The notes under the pieces: generated by a model | Databases searched by the model: none | Told to the model about the DNA's origin: nothing | What the model saw: the letters and a program-made list of their open reading frames with translations, nothing else | NCBI RefSeq assembly: GCF_058153355.1 | Contig: NZ_CM177019.1 | Length of the DNA stretch: 64,000 nucleotides | Reading direction: 5' to 3' (one strand) | In this document: one piece after another, positions 1 through 61,654 of the stretch | Layout: each line of letters opens with the position of its first letter | Position numbering within the stretch: position 1 is the first letter of the stretch | Program-made: the position numbers and the translations under genes

Positions 1-1495
<1,495 letters not shown>

Positions 1496-1555
1496 TATTT
1501 TTACAGCCAGCCGCTAACTTCCTACTGGCTGTAAAATTATCCTCTTCAGGAGGAG

Positions 1556-2981
1556 TAATGCCGATCAGTTAAGGATCAGTTGACCGATCCAGTGGCTGTG
1601 TAAGAATCCGGAAACGCTCACTTGTTTCCGGATTTTTTTATGCACATTGGACAGGCTCTTGATCTGGTATCCCGTTACGATTCTCTGCGTAACCCACTGA
1701 CTTCTCTGGGGGATTACCTCGACCCCGAACTCATCTCTCGTTGCCTTGCCGAATCAGGTACTGTAACGCTACGCAAGCGCCGTCTTCCCCTCGAAATGAT
1801 GGTCTGGTGTATTGTTGGCATGGCGCTTGAGCGTAAAGAACCTCTTCACCAGATTGTGAATCGCCTGGACATCATGCTGCCGGGCAATCGCCCCTTCGTT
1901 GCCCCCAGTGCCGTTATTCAGGCCCGCCAGCGCCTGGGAAGTGAGGCTGTCCGCCGCGTGTTCACGAAAACAGCGCAGCTCTGGCATAACGCCACGCCGC
2001 ATCCGCACTGGTGCGGCCTGACCCTGCTGGCCATCGATGGTGTGTTCTGGCGCACACCGGATACACCAGAGAACGATGCAGCCTTCCCCCGCCAGACACA
2101 TGCCGGGAACCCGGCGCTCTACCCGCAGGTCAAAATGGTCTGCCAGATGGAACTGACCAGCCATCTGCTGACGGCTGCAGCCTTCGGCACGATGAAGAAC
2201 AGCGAAAATGAGCTTGCTGAGCAACTTATAGAACAAACCGGCGATAACACTCTGACGTTAATGGATAAAGGTTATTACTCACTGGGACTGTTAAATGCCT
2301 GGAGCCTGGCGGGAGAACACCGCCACTGGATGATACCTCTCAGAAAGGGAGCGCAATATGAAGAGATCAGAAAACTGGGTAAAGGCGATCATCTGGTGAA
2401 GCTGAAAACCAGCCCGCAGGCACGAAAAAAGTGGCCGGGACTGGGAAATGAAGTGACAGCCCGCCTGCTGACCGTGACGCGCAAAGGAAAAGTCTGCCAT
2501 CTGCTGACGTCGATGACGGACGCCATGCGCTTCCCCGGAGGAGAAATGGCGGATCTGTACAGTCATCGCTGGGAAATCGAACTGGGATACAGGGAGATAA
2601 AACAGACGATGCAACTGAGCAGGCTGACGCTGAGAAGTAAAAAGCCGGAGCTTGTGGAGCAAGAGCTGTGGGGTGTCTTACTGGCTTATAATCTGGTGAG
2701 ATATCAGATGATTAAAATGGCGGAACATCTGAAAGGTTACTGGCCGAATCAACTGAGTTTCTCAGAATCATGCGGAATGGTGATGAGAATGCTGATGACA
2801 TTGCAGGGCGCTTCACCGGGACGTATACCGGAGCTGATGCGCGATCTTGCAAGTATGGGACAACTTGTGAAATTACCGACAAGAAGGGAAAGGGCCTTCC
2901 CGAGAGTGGTAAAGGAGAGGCCCTGGAAATACCCCACAGCCCCGAAAAAGAGCCAGTCAGTTGCTTAACTGACTGGCATTA
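1556..2981 (+). mobile_element. IS4 insertion sequence, 1426 bp
   Basis: Terminal inverted repeats TAATGCCGATCAGTTAAG (1556..1573) and CTTAACTGACTGGCATTA (2964..2981); 12-bp direct repeat CTTCAGGAGGAG at 1544..1555 and 2982..2993; single transposase ORF inside. Confidence 0.9.
1640..2968 (+). CDS. insG: IS4 transposase (DDE family)
   Basis: ORF 1622..2968; start chosen at MHIGQ to give 442 aa; sequence recognised as IS4 InsG. Confidence 0.85.
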
Positions 2982-2983
2982 CT

Positions 2984-3586
2984 TCAGGAGGAGATATTTA
3001 ACATCATTGCCGCCTGGGTGCGATTTTTGACTTCCAGACGGCGATACAGTGATTCCAGATGCGCTTTCACCGTTCCGGTACTGATATTCAGCGCCCTGCC
3101 GATCTCTTTATTTGATTCGCCCGCCGCTAACATGGTTAAAATCTCCCGCTGGCGGGCGCTTAACGATTTGAGATCTTTAATGTCCTTTTCCGGCGTCGTT
3201 CGCCAGTCTCCAGGCAGAAACATCATCCCCATCGCCGCACTATTGACCGCCAACGCAAATGTCTCGACGGTTGAATCACGAGGCACAATGGCCAGCACAT
3301 TAAAATGAATAACTTCCTGTAACCACCGTTTGTTGCAATCCGTCGCCGTAATTAACACCTTAACCTCAGGAAATTGCACCACGGTTTTTTGCAGCAACCA
3401 GTAGCAAAACTCACCATCCTGATCGCCATCGAGCATCACTAAGGCTTCAGGGTAACTTTCCAGCTTTTGCCATAACTCGTCTGCCTGACTGGCCCCCTGA
3501 ATACTCACTCCTGGAATACGATGCTGTAAACTGATTTTCATTCCATGAATAAATATTGACTGCCTGTCAAACATGACTATTTGCAT
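2984..3586 (-). CDS. yhjB: LuxR/FixJ-type response-regulator-like protein
   Basis: 200-aa ORF with C-terminal LuxR helix-turn-helix (REILTMLAAGESNKEIGRALNISTGTVKAHL). Confidence 0.85.
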   Translation of the reverse strand: MQIVMFDRQSIFIHGMKISLQHRIPGVSIQGASQADELWQKLESYPEALVMLDGDQDGEFCYWLLQKTVVQFPEVKVLITATDCNKRWLQEVIHFNVLAIVPRDSTVETFALAVNSAAMGMMFLPGDWRTTPEKDIKDLKSLSARQREILTMLAAGESNKEIGRALNISTGTVKAHLESLYRRLEVKNRTQAAMMLNISS

Positions 3587-4105
3587 AACTGAATCTCCAC
3601 CTGAATACGTTAAAAAGACTTAAGTAGTGGAAGGGTATTACCCGCGAGAAAAAATAAGAATTCGCCATTTGGCGGTGGCCATTCTACAGAGATGACGCGT
3701 AGAAAATAGTTACCGATATAAATAGTTACAGCTAAACGCCTGAAATTACATGTCGAGGGCATTATTTAAAACAATTTTGAGGATTTCCTTATATTGATGG
3801 CTAGTACGCATGCAATTAAAAATGAAATTCCGCGACCACAAGCCAAAATAACAAACGGCAATGAGACAAAAATAAGCACAAATAGCCAATACGTCCTCTG
3901 TTCACTTTAAAGGGAATCGCTGAAAAATACGCTCTGTTTAAGGGGATTCACCGTTCTCATAAAGCTATTCTCCCCTTTTCCTGCTGAGAAATCGCCACAT
4001 TCGTCATGACAACATTGTGAAACCCGGCATTAGATGTTAGAAAAAACAATAAACAATGCGATATGCGCGTTACTGTTTCGCTGTGAACAACAATCGGTCA
4101 AAGAA

Positions 4106-5005
4106 ATGGATAAAATTCACGCAATGCAGTTGTTCATCAAAGTCGCGGAGCTGGAAAGTTTTTCCCGCGCAGCGGATTTCTTTGCTTTGCCAAAGGGAAG
4201 TGTTTCGCGCCAGATACAGGCACTGGAACATCAACTTGGCACCCAGCTTCTCCAGCGCACCACGCGACGGGTCAAACTCACGCCAGAAGGCATGACCTAT
4301 TATCAACGGGCAAAAGATGTGTTGAGTAATCTCAACGAACTGGACGGTCTGTTTCAACAGGATGCCACCAGTATCAGCGGTAAATTACGCATCGACATCC
4401 CACCAGGAATCGCGAAAAGCCTGTTACTGCCGCGCCTGTCGGAATTTCTCTATCAGCATCCGGGAATTGAGCTGGAACTGAGTAGCCATGACCGTCCGGT
4501 AGATATTCTTCATGATGGTTTTGATTGCGTGATACGCACTGGCGCGTTATCGGAAGATGGTGTTATCGCCTGTCCCCTCGGCAAACTGACCATGGTCAAC
4601 TGTGCCAGTCCGCACTATCTGACGCGCTTTGGTTATCCGCAAAGCCCCGACGATCTGACTTCACACGCAATAGTGCGTTACACACCGCACCTGGGTGTAC
4701 ATCCGTTAGGTTTTGAGGTTGCCAGCGTTAATGGTGTCCAGTGGTTTAAGTCTGGCGGCATGTTGACGGTAAACAGTAGCGAAAACTATCTCGCCGCCGG
4801 TCTTGCCGGTCTGGGGATTATTCAGATCCCGCGCATTGCCGTGCGCGAAGCCCTGCGTGCCGGGCGGCTTATTGAAGTATTACCTGGCTACCGTGCCGAG
4901 CCGCTCTCCCTTTCGCTGATTTATCCGCAGCGTCGGGAGCTTTCCCGGCGTGTAAACCTGTTTATGCAGTGGCTGGCTGGCGTAATGAAAGAGTACCTGG
5001 ACTGA
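4106..5005 (+). CDS. yhjC: LysR-family transcriptional regulator
   Basis: ORF 4034..5005; start set at MDKIHAMQLF; N-terminal LysR HTH followed by substrate-binding domain. Confidence 0.8.
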   Translation: MDKIHAMQLFIKVAELESFSRAADFFALPKGSVSRQIQALEHQLGTQLLQRTTRRVKLTPEGMTYYQRAKDVLSNLNELDGLFQQDATSISGKLRIDIPPGIAKSLLLPRLSEFLYQHPGIELELSSHDRPVDILHDGFDCVIRTGALSEDGVIACPLGKLTMVNCASPHYLTRFGYPQSPDDLTSHAIVRYTPHLGVHPLGFEVASVNGVQWFKSGGMLTVNSSENYLAAGLAGLGIIQIPRIAVREALRAGRLIEVLPGYRAEPLSLSLIYPQRRELSRRVNLFMQWLAGVMKEYLD

Positions 5006-5053
5006 CCGACTATACTTTTTAAGAATGACCACGACAGAAGGACAAAAGAGCGG

Positions 5054-6067
5054 ATGACGCAGGAAAACGAGATCAAACGTCCCACCCAGGATCTGGAGCA
5101 CGAGCCGATTAAACCGCTGGATAATAGCGAGAAAGGCGGCAAAGTTAGCCAGGCGCTGGAAACCGTCACCACTACTGCCGAAAAAGTCCAACGCCAACCG
5201 ATTATTGCGCACCTGATTCGCGCGACTGAACGCTTTAACGATCGGCTGGGGAATCAGTTTGGTGCGGCTATCACCTATTTCTCATTTTTGTCGATGATTC
5301 CGATTTTGATGGTGTCGTTTGCCGCCGCTGGTTTCGTTCTGGCCTCCCATCCGATGCTGCTGCAGGATATCTTCGACAAAATTCTGCAAAATATTAGCGA
5401 TCCGACGCTGGCAGCTACATTGAAAAACACCATCAATACCGCCGTTCAACAGCGTACGACGGTAGGGCTTGTCGGCCTGGCGGTGGCGCTTTATTCCGGC
5501 ATCAACTGGATGGGTAACCTGCGTGAAGCGATTCGCGCTCAATCGCGCGATGTCTGGGAACGTTCGCCACAGGATCAGGAAAAATTTTGGGTTAAATATC
5601 TGCGTGATTTTATTTCGCTGATTGGTTTGTTGATTGCGCTCATTGTGACGCTTTCGATCACCTCGGTTGCCGGTTCGGCGCAGCAAATGATTATTAGCGC
5701 CCTGCACCTGAACAGCATTGAGTGGCTGAAACCAACGTGGCGGTTGATTGGTCTTGCGATTTCCATCTTCGCCAACTATCTGCTTTTCTTCTGGATCTTT
5801 TGGCGATTGCCGCGCCACCGTCCGCGCAAAAAAGCGCTAATTCGCGGAACATTTCTTGCTGCTATAGGTTTTGAAGTGATTAAAATCGTGATGACCTACA
5901 CACTGCCATCGCTGATGAAATCTCCGTCTGGCGCAGCATTTGGCTCCGTGCTGGGACTGATGGCGTTTTTCTACTTCTTCGCTCGTCTGACGCTGTTTTG
6001 CGCGGCGTGGATTGCCACCGCCGAATACAAAGACGACCCGAGAATGCCGGGGAAAACGCAGTCTTAA
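5054..6067 (+). CDS. yhjD: Inner membrane protein, YihY/BrkB family
   Basis: 337-aa ORF with multiple hydrophobic segments. Confidence 0.8.
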   Translation: MTQENEIKRPTQDLEHEPIKPLDNSEKGGKVSQALETVTTTAEKVQRQPIIAHLIRATERFNDRLGNQFGAAITYFSFLSMIPILMVSFAAAGFVLASHPMLLQDIFDKILQNISDPTLAATLKNTINTAVQQRTTVGLVGLAVALYSGINWMGNLREAIRAQSRDVWERSPQDQEKFWVKYLRDFISLIGLLIALIVTLSITSVAGSAQQMIISALHLNSIEWLKPTWRLIGLAISIFANYLLFFWIFWRLPRHRPRKKALIRGTFLAAIGFEVIKIVMTYTLPSLMKSPSGAAFGSVLGLMAFFYFFARLTLFCAAWIATAEYKDDPRMPGKTQS

Positions 6068-28080: not shown

Positions 28081-29652
28081 ATGAGGGACATTGTGGACCC
28101 TGTATTCTCTATCGGTATCTCATCATTATGGGATGAGCTGCGACATATGCCAGCAGGCGGCGTCTGGTGGTTTAACGTCGATCGCCATGAAGATGCTATC
28201 AGTCTGGCGAATCAAACAATTGCATCCCAGGCTGAAACCGCACACGTCGCGGTCATTAGCATGGACAGCGATCCGGCGAAAATCTTTCAATTAGATGATT
28301 CTCAAGGGCCGGAAAAAATAAAATTATTTTCAATGCTAAATCATGAAAAAGGTCTATACTATTTGGCCCGTGATTTGCAGTGTTCTATTGATCCCAATAA
28401 TTACCTTTTTATTCTTGTTTGCGCAAATAACGCATGGCAAAACATTCCTGCCGAGCGGCTTCGCTCATGGTTGGATAAAATGAATAAATGGAGCAGGTTA
28501 AACCATTGTTCGCTTTTGGTAATTAATCCCGGAAATAATAACGATAAACAATTTTCATTGTTGCTTGAGGAATACCGTTCACTTTTTGGTCTTGCCAGTT
28601 TGCGTTTTCAGGGCGACCAACATTTGCTGGATATTGCCTTCTGGTGCAACGAAAAAGGGGTCAGCGCCCGTCAGCAGCTTAGCGTTCAGCAACAAAAAGG
28701 TATCTGGACATTAGTTCAAAGCGAAGAGGCGGAGATCCAACCACGCAGCGACGAAAAACGCATTCTGAGTAATGTTGCTGTACTGGAAGGTGCGCCGCCG
28801 CTATCGGAACACTGGCAACTGTTCAACAATAACGAAGTTCTGTTCAATGAAGCCCGTACCGCTCAGGCGGCGACGGTGGTCTTTTCTTTACAGCAAAATG
28901 CGCAAATCGAGCCACTGGCCCGCAGCATTCATACTCTGCGTCGCCAGCGCGGTAGTGCGATGAAAATCCTCGTACGGGAAAATACCGCAAGCCTGCGCGC
29001 CACCGATGAACGTTTGTTATTGGCCTGCGGTGCAAATATGGTTATCCCGTGGAATGCGCCACTCTCCCGCTGTCTGACGATGATCGAAAGCGTGCAAGGG
29101 CAGAAGTTTAGTCGCTATGTGCCGGAAGATATCACTACCTTGCTGTCAATGACCCAGCCGCTCAAACTACGTGGTTTCCAGAAGTGGGATGTGTTCTGTA
29201 ATGCCGTTAACAACATGATGAATAACCCTCTCTTGCCTGCACATGGTAAAGGCGTTCTGATTGCCCTACGTCCGGTACCGGGTATCCGCGTTGAGCAAGC
29301 CCTGACGCTGTGTCGCCCTAACCGTACCGGCGATATCATGACCATTGGCGGTAATCGGCTGGTGCTGTTTCTCTCATTCTGTCGGATTAACGATCTGGAT
29401 ACCGCGTTGAATCATATTTTCCCATTGCCGACTGGCGACATTTTCTCAAACCGTATGGTCTGGTTTGAAGATGATCAAATCAGTGCCGAGCTGGTGCAGA
29501 TGCGCCTGCTTGCTCCAGAACAATGGGGCATGCCGCTGCCTTTAACGCAAAGTTCTAAACCGGTCATCAATGCCGAGCACGATGGTCGCCACTGGCGAAG
29601 AATACCAGAACCAATGCGACTGTTAGATGATACTGTGGAGCGCTCATCATGA
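28081..29652 (+). CDS. bcsE: Cellulose biosynthesis protein BcsE (c-di-GMP binding)
   Basis: 523-aa ORF. Confidence 0.85.
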
Positions 29653-31516: not shown

Positions 31517-31602
31517 GAACGAAAAAGGCCGCAGAGTTTCACCCCTGCGGCCTGATCCGGGCGCAAATTGCCATTACGGCAGCCTGACGCCCGCATGACA
31601 CG

Positions 31603-31710
31603 TTACTTCCGCTTATTCAGCGAGTTCACGATCAGACTGGCAAGAATGCCAGCAATGACCGGAGCCGCTAAATCATGCCAGAAGGCCATGCCCAGTTCTG
31701 CGAGCGTCAT
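31603..31710 (-). CDS. ldrD: Type I toxin LdrD, small membrane peptide
   Basis: 35-aa ORF MTLAELGMAFWHDLAAPVIAGILASLIVNSLNKRK inside the longer ORF 31603..31845. Confidence 0.7.
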   Translation of the reverse strand: MTLAELGMAFWHDLAAPVIAGILASLIVNSLNKRK

Positions 31711-31757
31711 ATAGCCGCCTCTGTTGTAATGACAACGTTTCGCGGCTATTCTTGAGT

Positions 31758-31824
31758 TGTTTGGGTTCAAGATTAGCCCCCGTGATGTTGTCAGGTGCAT
31801 ACCTGCAACGTGCGGGGGTTTTCT
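31758..31824 (+). ncRNA. rdlD: Candidate antisense RNA RdlD (antitoxin of ldrD); boundaries approximate
   Basis: Plus-strand hairpin CCCCCG...CGGGGG followed by TTTT at 31777..31824, opposite the ldrD leader; position inferred from the known ldr/rdl arrangement. Confidence 0.3.
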
Positions 31825-32185
31825 CTCTCCAGCAACCAATGCCACCAGGGATTAAGCCCCCGCAACATTGCGCCTCACCGGAACCTTTCCGGCTTGCCGC
31901 TGCTTTTACGATTGCTTTTTACCGTCAGCACCCGGCAATCTTCCTCATTGCGTGATGCCTTCCAGCTTAATTTCTTTATTTGCAATAGTTGCAGTTCATA
32001 TCCGGGCTGACTCCAGACTGGTAGTGAAATGCGCAATTTTGTAGAATTGCGCCTCCTCGCGACCTCCCCAGTGAATCTGTTGCCTCATTTTTTACATACT
32101 GCGTATTCGACTTCTCCACCTGTTGCGCAAGAGAAACTGGGTTTATTCATTTTTGCGAGGCCGACTTCTTTCTGGACAGGACTTT

Positions 32186-39889: not shown

Positions 39890-41202
<1,313 letters not shown>

Positions 41203-41410
41203 CATGCCTGCAATCTGGGAAACCGGGGTAGAAAAAAACTTGCAGGCCATAACAGTATCTACGTTCAGATTTGGTCGGTGCCAGAGGATTACTCGCCACT
41301 GCGTGGCTCGCCCTGCGGGCCGTTGCTGACGCAACGTTCTCTCGCTTTGCTCGAGTCGAACCTCTCTGCCCCCGGAGGTTCTTATCCTCTTCAGGTCGCA
41401 GAAAGCAAAA

Positions 41411-53273: not shown

Positions 53274-53426
53274 TTACTCTTTCAATTTGCAGGCTAAAAA
53301 CGCCGCCAGCTCATAATTCTCCTGTTTAATATGCAATTCACACAGTGAATCTCTTATCATCCAGGTGAAAAATAAAAGCGTGAAACAAATCACTATTAAA
53401 GAAAGTAATCTATATTTCTGCGGCAT
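53274..53426 (-). CDS. hokA: Hok-family type I toxin HokA
   Basis: 50-aa ORF MPQKYRLLSLIVICFTLLFFTWMIRDSLCELHIKQENYELAAFLACKLKE. Confidence 0.75.
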   Translation of the reverse strand: MPQKYRLLSLIVICFTLLFFTWMIRDSLCELHIKQENYELAAFLACKLKE

Positions 53427-53486
53427 TCCCAGCCTCCTGTGTTGATTTCCAACGAGTAAGAGGCTAACCTTATGGTGTTCAGGCAT
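53274..53486 (-). CDS. mokA: Overlapping leader reading frame MokA ending at the hokA stop
   Basis: 70-aa ORF containing the hokA frame; called by analogy with hok/mok/sok loci. Confidence 0.5.
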   Translation of the reverse strand: MPEHHKVSLLLVGNQHRRLGMPQKYRLLSLIVICFTLLFFTWMIRDSLCELHIKQENYELAAFLACKLKE

Positions 53487-53704
53487 AGGGTAGCCTCACT
53501 TTGATTTATAGTCAGGTGGGGCTTTTCTCTGTCTGCCTTTCGGTGAATACCTGAGACAAACAGTCTCAAGCACCCGTGGCTATTCTAGCTTAATAAGTTC
53601 TTTTCTTCTCCTTGATATAATCCTAAAAAAATCTCATAAAATTAATATATGAGACAATCTTTATTCAGCAGAAGATTATTAAAGGTTGCTCTATTATTTA
53701 GCGA

Positions 53705-58352: not shown

Positions 58353-58811
58353 TTATTCGCTGTATTCTTCCTGGGTAACCTGTGTTTCTTTTGGTGGGTT
58401 TATTCCGGCATCACGAATATTCTTCTGCACCGCTACTGCACCAAACAAGCTTAAGAAGAAAGCCAGTCCATAAAAACCTTTCTCGCTGAGTAATAACGTC
58501 GCATTCCACAGACCTACCATCAGTAACGCAACAGAGATAATAAAGACAGTCAGGCAGGTCATATAATAAATGGAGGTGGTCGGTATGCCTTCATACTTGT
58601 CCCGAACGGTCTTTTGATAAGATGCCGCAGAAAACAGTCCTAGCACCAGCACGGCAAAATAATATCCTTTTTCATTTAACTGCATCTCTGCATTCCATAG
58701 CCCTAACAGATAGGTAACGATACCACCAACAAGAGCTATCCATGACACAATACTAAATGCCGGAGAATAGGTTGATATTTTGGTAAGCGTCTTATCAGGA
58801 CCGTCTGGCAA
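58353..58811 (-). CDS. yiaA: Inner membrane protein YiaA with 5' end replaced by an IS terminus (chimeric start)
   Basis: ORF reads [10 protein letters not shown] from inside the IS66-family end (58783..58811) into [14 protein letters not shown]...; native start codons MDNKI lie 2.47 kb away at 61253..61267. Confidence 0.65.
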
Positions 58812-58857
58812 ATTCCCGATGCTTTGGACAAAGTATCCACCACTAAATTAATAGTGG

Positions 58858-59286
58858 GTGATAAAAATGTCAGATATACAAAAAAATGCCTCTCCGGGAA
58901 GGCCTAAAGGGTGCCTGAATTATCCTCCTGAATTCAAACAACGACTCATAGAAGCATCATTCCAGCCAGGTGTTTCAATTTCCAGACTGGCCCTGGACAA
59001 TGGTATTAATGCCAATCTGTTGTTCAAATGGCGTCAGAAATGGCGGCAGGGGAAGATAAAATTGCCATCATCAGAATCAGGCAGAGAATCTCAGTTAATT
59101 CCTGTCACTATTGATGCCCAACTCCCAACTGCTCCGGCTAATGAGCCACTGACCGCAAGACCGTCAGTAACACCGGAAATACACAGCATCTCCTGTGAGA
59201 TTACGTTCAGAAACGGCACCCTTCGGTTGAACGGGGCAGTGAATGAAAATCTGCTGTCCTTGCTTATACAGGAGCTGAGACGGTGA
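58858..59286 (+). CDS. IS66-family accessory protein (orfA/TnpA-like)
   Basis: 142-aa ORF; stop overlaps next ORF start (ATGA-type coupling). Confidence 0.75.
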   Translation: MIKMSDIQKNASPGRPKGCLNYPPEFKQRLIEASFQPGVSISRLALDNGINANLLFKWRQKWRQGKIKLPSSESGRESQLIPVTIDAQLPTAPANEPLTARPSVTPEIHSISCEITFRNGTLRLNGAVNENLLSLLIQELRR

Positions 59287-59630
59287 TATCTCTCCCTGCA
59301 GGTTCGCGTATCTGGCTGGTTGCAGGTATCACCGATATGCGAAATGGCTTTAACGGCCTGGCCTCAAAAGTTCAGAACGTCCTGAAGGATGACCCGTTCT
59401 CCGGGCATCTGTTCATCTTCCGCGGACGCCGGGGTGACCAGATAAAAGTGTTGTGGGCTGACAGTGACGGACTGTGCCTCTTCACCAGACGCCTGGAGCG
59501 GGGCCGCTTCGTCTGGCCGGTCACCCGTGACGGCAAGGTGCACCTTACTCCGGCCCAGTTATCCATGCTTCTTGAGGGCATCGACTGGAAACACCCGAAA
59601 CGAACGGAACGCGCTGGCATCCGCATATAA
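59283..59630 (+). CDS. IS66-family accessory protein (orfB/TnpB-like)
   Basis: 115-aa ORF MISLPAGSRIWLVAGITDMRNGFNGLA..., characteristic IS66 orf2. Confidence 0.8.
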   Translation: MISLPAGSRIWLVAGITDMRNGFNGLASKVQNVLKDDPFSGHLFIFRGRRGDQIKVLWADSDGLCLFTRRLERGRFVWPVTRDGKVHLTPAQLSMLLEGIDWKHPKRTERAGIRI

Positions 59631-59649
59631 CCCGTTGTAAAGTGAGGAT

Positions 59650-61221
59650 ATGGACACCTCACTTGCTCATGAGAATGCCCGCCTGCGGGCACTGTTGCAG
59701 ACGCAACAGGACACCATCCGCCAGATGGCGAAATACAACCGCCTGCTCTCACAGCGGGTGGCGGCTTATGCTTCCGAAATCAACCGGCTGAAGGCGCTGG
59801 TTGCAAAACTGCAGCGCATGCAGTTCGGTAAAAGCTCAGAAAAACTTCGTGCAAAAACCGAACGGCAGATACAGGAAGCACAGGAGCGAATCAGCGCTCT
59901 TCAGGAAGAAATGGCGGAAACGCTGGGTGAGCAATATGACCCGGTACTGCCATCTCCCCTGCGCCAGTCTTCAGCCCGTAAACCGTTACCTGCCTCACTT
60001 CCCCGTGAAACCCGGGTCATCCGTCCGGAAGAGGAATGCTGCCCGGCCTGTGGTGGCGAACTCAGTTCTCTGGGATGTGATGTGTCAGAGCAACTGGAGC
60101 TTATCAGCAGCGCCTTTAAGGTTATCGAAACACAACGTCCGAAACTGGCCTGTTGCCGGTGCGACCATATCGTGCAGGCTCCGGTGCCTTCAAAACCCAT
60201 TGCACGCAGTTATGCCGGAGCGGGGCTTCTGGCCCATGTTGTCGCTGGAAAATATGCAGACCATCTGCCGTTATACCGCCAGTCAGAAATATACCGTCGT
60301 CAGGGCGTGGAGCTGAGCCGTGCCACACTGGGGCGCTGGACAGGTGCTGTTGCTGAACTGCTGGAACCGCTGTATGACATCCTGCGCCAGTATGTGCTGA
60401 TGCCCGGTAAAGTCCATGCCGATGATATCCCCGTTCCGGTCCAGGAGCCGGGCAGCGGTAAAACAAGGACTGCCCGGCTGTGGGTCTACGTTCGTGATGA
60501 CCGTAACGCCGGTTCGGAAATGCCTCCGGCGGTCTGGTTCGCGTACAGCCCGGACCGGAAAGGTATCCATCCACAGAATCATCTGGCCGGTTACAGCGGA
60601 GTGCTTCAGGCCGATGCTTACGGTGGTTACCGGGCGTTGTACGAATCCGGCAGAATAACGGAAGCCGCATGTATGGCTCATGCCCGGAGAAAAATCCACG
60701 ATGTGCATGCAAGAGTGCCCACCGACATCACCACGGAAGCCCTGCAGCGTATCGGTGAACTGTATGCCATCGAGGCAGAGGTCCGGGGCTGTTCAGCAGA
60801 ACAGCGTCTGGCGGCAAGAAAAGCCAGAGCCGCGCCACTGATGCAGTCACTGTATGACTGGATACAGCAACAGATGAAAACACTGTCGCGTCACTCGGAC
60901 ACGGCAAAAGCGTTCGCATACCTGCTGAAACAGTGGGATGCACTGAACGTGTACTGCAGTAATGGCTGGGTGGAAATCGACAACAACATCGCAGAGAACG
61001 CCTTACGGGGAGTGGCCGTAGGCCGGAAAAACTGGCTCTTCGCGGGTTCTGACAGCGGTGGTGAACATGCTGCGGTGTTGTACTCGCTGATCGGCACATG
61101 CCGTCTGAACAATGTGGAGCCAGAAAAGTGGCTGCGTTACGTCATTGAACATATCCAGGACTGGCCGGCAAACCGGGTACGCGATCTGTTGCCCTGGAAA
61201 GTTGATCTGAGCTCTCAGTAA
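59650..61221 (+). CDS. IS66-family transposase (TnpC)
   Basis: 523-aa ORF with N-terminal leucine-zipper-like region, CxxC pairs and DDE-type core. Confidence 0.85.
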
Positions 61222-61312
61222 ATATCAATACGGTTCTGGCGAGCCGCTTACATATTTTGTTGTCCATCACAGTATTCCTTTCATTCCTGAATGTGTAAGA
61301 GCTTTATGTTGC

Positions 61313-61654
61313 TCATGCCGGGCGAAACAAACGCATTTGACCAAACAAGCAGACAAAAAAGGCGATAGGGTAGATCACCATTTCATAAGCATTGATAGGT
61401 GCGTTTAAAACACCGATAAACAAGAGACCGATAGTGATTAACGCAACTAACTGGCAGATGTGAATAAAAAAATCATCCAGTTGCCCGAGTTTTTCTGCGC
61501 GAAGATATGCATAGTTGCTAAAAGTTGCCGTCATTAACACGCCAAGAAAATAGCCTTTTCCACTTAACAATGGGCATGAGATCCATAGCCCAAGCAGATA
61601 AACCAGCGCCCCGACAACAAATAATAGTTTTGCCACAGTCTTTGAGGTTTTCAT
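61313..61654 (-). CDS. yiaB: Inner membrane protein YiaB (yiaA paralogue)
   Basis: ORF 61313..61696; start set at MKTSKTVAKLLF (113 aa). Confidence 0.75.
   Translation of the reverse strand: MKTSKTVAKLLFVVGALVYLLGLWISCPLLSGKGYFLGVLMTATFSNYAYLRAEKLGQLDDFFIHICQLVALITIGLLFIGVLNAPINAYEMVIYPIAFFVCLFGQMRLFRPA

Follow-up and report, generated by a model that had tools for sequence, protein, structure and literature searches.

The yiaA gene in the analyzed DNA (64,000 nucleotides of contig NZ_CM177019.1, assembly GCF_058153355.1, hereafter the window) is interrupted close to its 5' end by a complete insertion sequence of the IS66 family. A recent, simple insertion has in all likelihood uncoupled this gene from its expression signals and left a null or strongly reduced allele, in which we infer the loss of expression from the nucleotide sequence. 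The course of events would have been as follows: an intact IS66-family element transposed recently into nucleotides 8–15 of yiaA and made there the 8-bp target duplication that is usual for the family, and 2.47 kb of foreign DNA now separates the yiaA body from its own promoter, Shine–Dalgarno (SD) sequence, and ATG. The allele would in effect be a fresh pseudogene. The recent date is suggested by the integrity of the three open reading frames (ORFs) of the element together with the perfect duplication. The coordinates of all features are compiled in Table 1.

Table 1. Features of the interrupted yiaA locus (positions in the window).
Feature	Position	Strand	Remarks
yiaA body, from the third base of codon 3 to stop	58353..58782	-	cut from promoter, SD, and ATG
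Target-site duplication, left copy	58775..58782		ATATTTTG; 8 bp, equal to yiaA nucleotides 8–15 (minus strand)
IS66-family insertion sequence, complete	58783..61251	+	2,469 bp; ends GTAAGCG...CGCTTAC
Left terminal inverted repeat (IRL)	58783..58809	+	19/27 matches to IRR
Insertion junction			junction 30-mer GGTTGATATTTTGGTAAGCGTCTTATCAGG
In-frame TTG	58809..58811	-	inside IRL; start of mechanical 152-codon chimeric ORF 58353..58811
Second terminator-like hairpin	58837..58857	- (same strand as the first)	-9.6 kcal/mol; just upstream of TTG
tnpA	58867..59286	+	139 aa, short accessory protein; alternative GTG start at 58858
Terminator-like hairpin, then T7	58888..58903	- (strand toward yiaA)	-6.3 kcal/mol
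tnpB	59283..59630	+	115 aa; GTG start overlaps tnpA stop (GTGA)
tnpC	59650..61221	+	523-aa DDE transposase, from Pfam and NCBIfam
Reciprocal fusion, 41-codon stub ORF	61142..61267	-	native yiaA start, antisense into right end of the element
Right terminal inverted repeat (IRR)	61225..61251	-	
Target-site duplication, right copy	61252..61259		ATATTTTG; 8 bp
Native yiaA ATG GAC AA	61260..61267	-	far side of the element, with native SD AAAGGAA and upstream region
yiaB, intact neighbor upstream	61313..61654	-	113 aa by comparison with EC42405

The element in yiaA is an IS66-family insertion sequence, as identified from its gene layout, the domains of TnpC, its termini, and the 8-bp duplication at its borders. 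The order tnpA–tnpB–tnpC, in which tnpB overlaps the tnpA end, is an established feature of IS66 elements (Han et al. 2001 J Bacteriol 183:4296; Gourbeyre et al. 2010). All three ORFs of the present element are intact, and each product scored above the curated NCBIfam cut-off for IS66 models. TnpA matched NF047595 (IS66_ISRel24_TnpA) with 88.9 bits (cut-off 74), TnpB matched NF033819 (IS66_TnpB) with 127.8 bits (cut-off 50), and TnpC matched transpos_IS66 with 479 bits. TnpC also contains the Pfam domains PF13007 (LZ_Tnp_IS66), PF13005 (zf-IS66), PF03050 (DDE_Tnp_IS66), and PF13817 (DDE_Tnp_IS66_C), of which the DDE_Tnp_IS66 match covers positions 1–283 of the 284-position model with 345.9 bits. 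The two terminal repeats are imperfect, with 7 of 7 positions matching at the tips and 15 of 20 and 19 of 27 over longer stretches. Termini of the GTAAGCG type are also present at four comparison loci (L001, L002, L004, and L005). The preliminary description had recognized a 2,469-bp IS66-family element with such ends, flanked by an 8-bp duplication; the coordinates and the family models agree with this, and ATATTTTG was found at both borders.

The uninterrupted gene was reconstructed from the two flanks. Read on the minus strand, the right flank of the element is ATG GAC AAC AAA ATA T, and the frame continues in the left flank as ...CA ACC TAT TCT. When the element is deleted together with one copy of the repeat, the result is therefore ATG GAC AAC AAA ATA TCA ACC (MDNKISTYSP...). 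The duplicated nucleotides lie in codons 3–6, where the insertion had been placed before. A comparison with an uninterrupted yiaA–yiaB locus had been suggested in the preliminary description. The healed locus was aligned to the wecH-yiaA-yiaB-xylB locus of E. coli EC42405, which has the same gene order. The gene healed exactly: 3,307 nt around the healed junction were aligned gapless with 98.6% identity, and the 60-mer centered on this junction was found as an exact match in EC42405. Between the healed yiaA (438 nt) and that of EC42405 there are 3 nt differences, and the encoded protein is the same as YiaA WP_001296808.1 of this strain, which confirms that excision rebuilds the natural start MDNKIST.... 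The yiaA body matched the NCBIfam model PRK11383 (YiaA) with 197.6 bits (cut-off 150); YiaA belongs to the YiaA/YiaB family of inner-membrane proteins.

Such exact healing is the signature of a real transposition and not of a misjoin. Copies of insertion sequences are a classic source of misassembly, and the junctions might for this reason be an artefact in which a copy of the element was misplaced into yiaA. A misjoin would not, however, produce a perfect 8-bp duplication of family-typical length at the exact termini, nor would it heal exactly on excision. Moreover, the element occurs in one copy only in the 64-kb window, where a search for a further copy located the 40-mer of its IRL a single time. 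We consider an artefactual origin of the junctions extremely improbable. A 523-aa ORF at 28081..29652 was inspected as a second IS66 copy and was rejected; it shares the length of TnpC, its sequence is unrelated, and it corresponds to bcsE by collinearity.

The element is a mosaic, in which a short ISRel24-type TnpA is joined to ISCro1-like TnpB and TnpC. Positions 502–2469 of the element, comprising tnpB, tnpC, and the right end, exhibited approximately 97% DNA identity to chromosomal and plasmid copies from E. coli annotated as ISCro1 family, a label that RefSeq gives to the matching copies in thousands of E. coli records. The same positions are 96% identical to one copy annotated as IS679. 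The ISCro1/IS679 group, which occurs in Enterobacteriaceae, resembles the element in its GTAAGCG termini, in an 8-bp duplication, and in the layout of three genes. The left part is different: the first 500 bp or so aligned poorly to IS679 and had almost no match in E. coli. An identity to ISCro1 of approximately 95% or higher over the whole length was not found, and the left 500 bp, including tnpA, did not match the ISCro1-annotated copies. TnpA of IS679 has about 216 aa, whereas the element encodes a 139-aa protein of the ISRel24 type (NF047595), and this short TnpA accounts for the element length of 2,469 bp.

Full-length matches were obtained from four plasmid records of Escherichia albertii. 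In the IncF plasmids of this species (e.g., pESA134_1, NZ_CP070285.2), the 2,469-bp element is present with 95.7–95.9% identity, and the left end of the yiaA element is identical throughout to the E. albertii plasmid copy. The E. albertii copy at 95.9% identity (L004) is flanked by the duplication GAATAAGG and lies inside a Tn3-family transposase gene. A closer relative was found in the draft assembly GCA_047897835.1 (L005), whose 2,469-bp copy is 99.8% identical with 5 differences and has the same termini. This copy is flanked by the duplication CACCGGAC and adjoins a SPATE-type autotransporter gene. Its TnpC is identical, and the contig carrying it is the only other one on record with this exact protein; for its identical TnpA, the domain PF01527 is recorded. 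Neither the E. albertii copies nor that of GCA_047897835.1 lie in yiaA. Thus, three independent insertions agree in their ends and in their length, and each has a duplication of its own, which confirms both the boundaries of the element and the length of the duplication. As the ORFs are intact, the duplication is perfect, and near-identical copies occupy other sites, the element is probably still active.

A 300-nt probe of the left junction was spanned in none of 5,426 complete E. coli genomes, 5,394 of which contain the yiaA half of the probe, and the full-length element was likewise absent from all 5,426. The first 40 nt of the element had no exact match in 100,044 species-representative genomes, which indicates that this variant of the element is rare. 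The flanking 8.8 kb reached at best 98.7% identity to any complete E. coli genome, which implies that the host is an E. coli to which no genome of that set is closely related. By these genome comparisons, the yiaA insertion is private or restricted to a lineage. The novelty here is an insertion site for a rare mosaic IS66 isoform, the IS66 family itself being well known.

Matches to the right junction were also obtained, and these were rejected as the same insertion since they represent different, IS679-type insertions elsewhere in yiaA. Three complete E. coli genomes have IS679-type elements in this gene at other positions. In O111:H2 12A, and apparently also in strain 10035776-3, the element lies at about nucleotides 134–141 of yiaA with the duplication GTACGGCA, and in FDAARGOS_943 it lies at about nucleotides 275–282. 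These insertions are events independent of the present one; both the elements and the sites are different. The notion of yiaA as a hotspot for IS66 elements was not upheld, as the sites are three different ones and the number of insertions does not exceed a rough estimate of chance. This estimate, a generous one, assumed 10,286 chromosomal IS66-type places, a 438-bp target, and a genome of approximately 5 Mb, and gave about 0.9 insertions, so that a few independent insertions in yiaA are unremarkable.

The rearrangement divided the gene such that its expression signals remained on the far side of the element. The native ATG (61265..61267), the SD, and the promoter region are intact there, and they now precede the 41-codon stub, which stops at 61142. 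This stub has better expression signals than the fusion starting from TTG at the other junction and is without obvious function. In a study of Lrp (PMC10127797), yiaB and yiaA were treated as separate transcription units with a promoter each. A promoter of its own for yiaA is therefore expected immediately before the native ATG, in a region that now lies beyond the element. The genes of the element are on the plus strand and directed away from the yiaA body, so that read-through from the transposase genes cannot drive yiaA.

The preliminary description had also proposed that an ATG at 58811, inside the terminus of the element, replaces the first three residues (MDN) and that yiaA may now be expressed from signals of the element. 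The frame is indeed open from this position into the yiaA body, and the peptide would be as claimed if this start were used. The codon itself is not ATG: the minus-strand triplet 58811..58809 is TTG (CAA on the plus strand), and it is the sole ATG, GTG, or TTG between an in-frame TAA (58850..58848) and the junction. TTG is a legitimate but inefficient start codon in bacteria, several-fold weaker than ATG in E. coli, where initiation also needs an SD spacing of about 5–9 nt. TTG 58811 does not possess an SD at this distance. The only SD-like stretch near it is CGGGAA, which ends 1 nt upstream and has a pairing energy of -4.3 kcal/mol with the anti-SD. The native start combines an ATG with AAAGGAA, which is spaced by 7 nt and reaches -5.6 kcal/mol. 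Folding over 73 nt gave -15.2 kcal/mol for the TTG region and -7.8 kcal/mol for the native start region, so that the former is predicted to be the more stable and to sequester the start. From these properties, TTG 58811 is a very poor initiation site. Furthermore, of the three frames that leave the element through its left end, two encounter a TTG or GTG ahead of any stop codon, and an in-frame chimeric ORF is therefore expected from a mechanical scan and does not go beyond chance. A search of a large protein collection for the exact 152-aa chimeric protein gave no gene product on record. We regard the TTG ORF as a side effect of the junction and not as a means of expression.

Transcription from the left end of the element into yiaA was considered as well. 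A consensus scan of the minus strand at a threshold of at least 9 of 12 positions gave no outward σ70 site in this end, although such a scan cannot prove absence. When the scan was relaxed, the best score was 8/12, and the best-placed site at this score was CTGACA-17-TAATTT (58873 to 58845), whose -10 hexamer matches at 3 of 6 positions and which sits about 27 nt upstream of TTG 58811. The two terminator-like hairpins on the same strand (Table 1) would, from their predicted structures, tend to halt transcripts that arrive from deeper in the element. Other IS families are known to drive neighboring genes through outward or hybrid promoters (PMC3281130). In this promoter-trap study of Paracoccus, outward promoters are listed for elements of the IS5, IS3, and IS21 families. 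Members of the IS66 family, for which its table gives 8-bp direct repeats, were captured but are absent from the list of outward promoters. The yiaA case resembles such IS-mediated activation in the position of the element: one of its ends borders the 5' end of a gene, and its orientation would allow transcription outward. It differs from activation of that kind in that the element interrupts the coding sequence instead of preceding an intact gene, the scan gave no promoter-like site at its threshold, the TTG is without usable SD spacing, and hairpins occur on the outward strand. The insertion acts like any gene-disrupting insertion sequence, and the evidence does not place yiaA among the cases of IS-driven activation.

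The open frame and the weak promoter-like site speak for a chimeric YiaA made from a promoter and a start codon that the left end of the element supplies, but with all observations put together this is quite unlikely. The claim of a credible new start that expresses yiaA could not be sustained against the TTG codon, the SD-like stretch at 1 nt, the stable fold, the missing outward σ70 site, and the two hairpins. A more specific form of the idea, in which CTGACA-17-TAATTT acts as a weak outward promoter and, together with TTG 58811, keeps a low level of a YiaA that is altered at its N-terminus and still functional, is in our estimation very unlikely. MDN are the only native residues replaced, so that a low-abundance chimeric YiaA could still function. 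If this weak promoter were real, an outward-reading expression signal would be documented for the first time in an end of an IS66-family element.

Translation might also begin within the yiaA body, where in-frame starts are present at GTG 58748, ATG 58685, and GTG 58652, with transcripts supplied by read-through or spurious transcription. GTG 58652 has the best SD-like match among them (AAAAAGGAU, -5.4 kcal/mol), but its spacing is 11 nt, and GTG 58748 and ATG 58685 are essentially without an SD. Such starts would cost 21 to 53 residues of the 145-aa protein, and a promoter is missing for them likewise. An N-terminally truncated YiaA arising by this route is thus judged highly improbable.

The loss of yiaA expression through a simple insertion thereby remains the preferred reading, and comparable yiaA genes split by IS66 elements have been annotated as pseudogenes by RefSeq. 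The consequence for annotation is that yiaA should be described here as an IS-disrupted pseudogene, and a 152-aa product initiated at TTG should not be entered. The case also illustrates that an in-frame "chimeric start" at the junction of an insertion sequence is the usual outcome of a mechanical ORF scan. Its significance beyond annotation is little. We know of no function for YiaA, so that no phenotype is predictable from its loss. As for the surroundings, the 64-kb window corresponds to the standard bcs-dpp-eptB-bisC-cspA-glyQS-wecH-yiaAB-xylB region of E. coli, and structural differences from EC42405 occur elsewhere in it too.

The 2,469-bp IS66-family element inserted in yiaA was found to be a mosaic, whose portions at 58783..59285 and 59286..61251 differ in affinity. 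Its left ~500 bp, which comprises the left terminal inverted repeat and a short ISRel24-type tnpA, is unrelated to IS679, and no match to this part was found among copies annotated as ISCro1. The remainder, with tnpB, tnpC and the right terminal inverted repeat, is ~97% ISCro1-like. The switch falls at the tnpA/tnpB boundary (GATATCTCTCCCTGC), and this position in the sequence suggests recombination between IS66 lineages as the source of the mosaic.

Two other copies of this element were located (Table). The near-identical one lies directly downstream of a gene for a SPATE-type serine-protease autotransporter and is adjoined by further transposase genes, surroundings of the kind usually seen on a virulence plasmid or island. 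The E. albertii plasmid copy, flanked by the target duplication GAATAAGG, splits a Tn3-family transposase gene, whose two flanking parts are annotated under one protein accession. The yiaA gene has also received IS679-type insertions in two E. coli genomes, which are independent events at other positions in yiaA than that in the window. The insertion in O111:H2 12A is flanked by the duplication GTACGGCA, and the FDAARGOS_943 locus was rearranged further: it contains ISSfl3 and IS1 and has lost xylAB.

In the window, the native yiaA promoter region, Shine-Dalgarno sequence and ATG now drive a predicted 41-codon stub ORF, which enters the 3' end of tnpC in antisense. Antisense RNA against the transposase gene could arise from these native yiaA signals.

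Table. Coordinates of the insertions, element copies and small features.
Feature	Sequence	Position	Strand
IS679-type insertion in yiaA	E. coli O111:H2 12A locus (L001)	946..3651	
IS679-type insertion in yiaA	FDAARGOS_943 locus (L002)	~1030..3650	
Element copy, 5 differences	GCA_047897835.1, ABXYKR010000031.1 (L005)	3134..5602	
Element copy, 95.9%	E. albertii pESA134_1 (L004)	1501..3969	
Stub ORF, 41 codons, from native yiaA start	window	61142..61267	-
Insertion of ~1,278 bp vs E. coli EC42405	window	39981..41258	
Transposase ORF in this insertion	window	40173..41153	+
rdlD (Rfam match)	window	31759..31824	

The 326-aa product of the ORF in the ~1,278-bp insertion is an IS110-family "RNA-guided transposase" by its match to NCBIfam NF033542 (253 bits), and matching copies are labeled IS621 family in RefSeq, with a best identity of 98.7%. 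The insertion is directly adjoined by a REP/naRNA4 element (Rfam match, 39898..39979), and its left end of ~190 nt (39981..40172) is non-coding and corresponds to the bridge RNA-encoding part of IS621. A few genomes also carry IS621 at this dppA-RtT locus. The RtT repeat, present as a single copy (41272..41406) vs two in EC42405, is located downstream of tRNA-Pro(CGG), proK, although the RefSeq note describes RtT as "processed from tyrT transcript".

The ldr/rdlD type I toxin-antitoxin (31519..31920) has one unit vs five tandem units in EC42405, which is repeat copy-number variation. Between cspA and glyS, a hok/sok locus was observed (53424..53575 and surroundings; Rfam sok, 124 bits); no IS150 lies beside it in the window, and an IS150 occurs at some point within the matching 8.8-kb stretch of several of the closest genomes.
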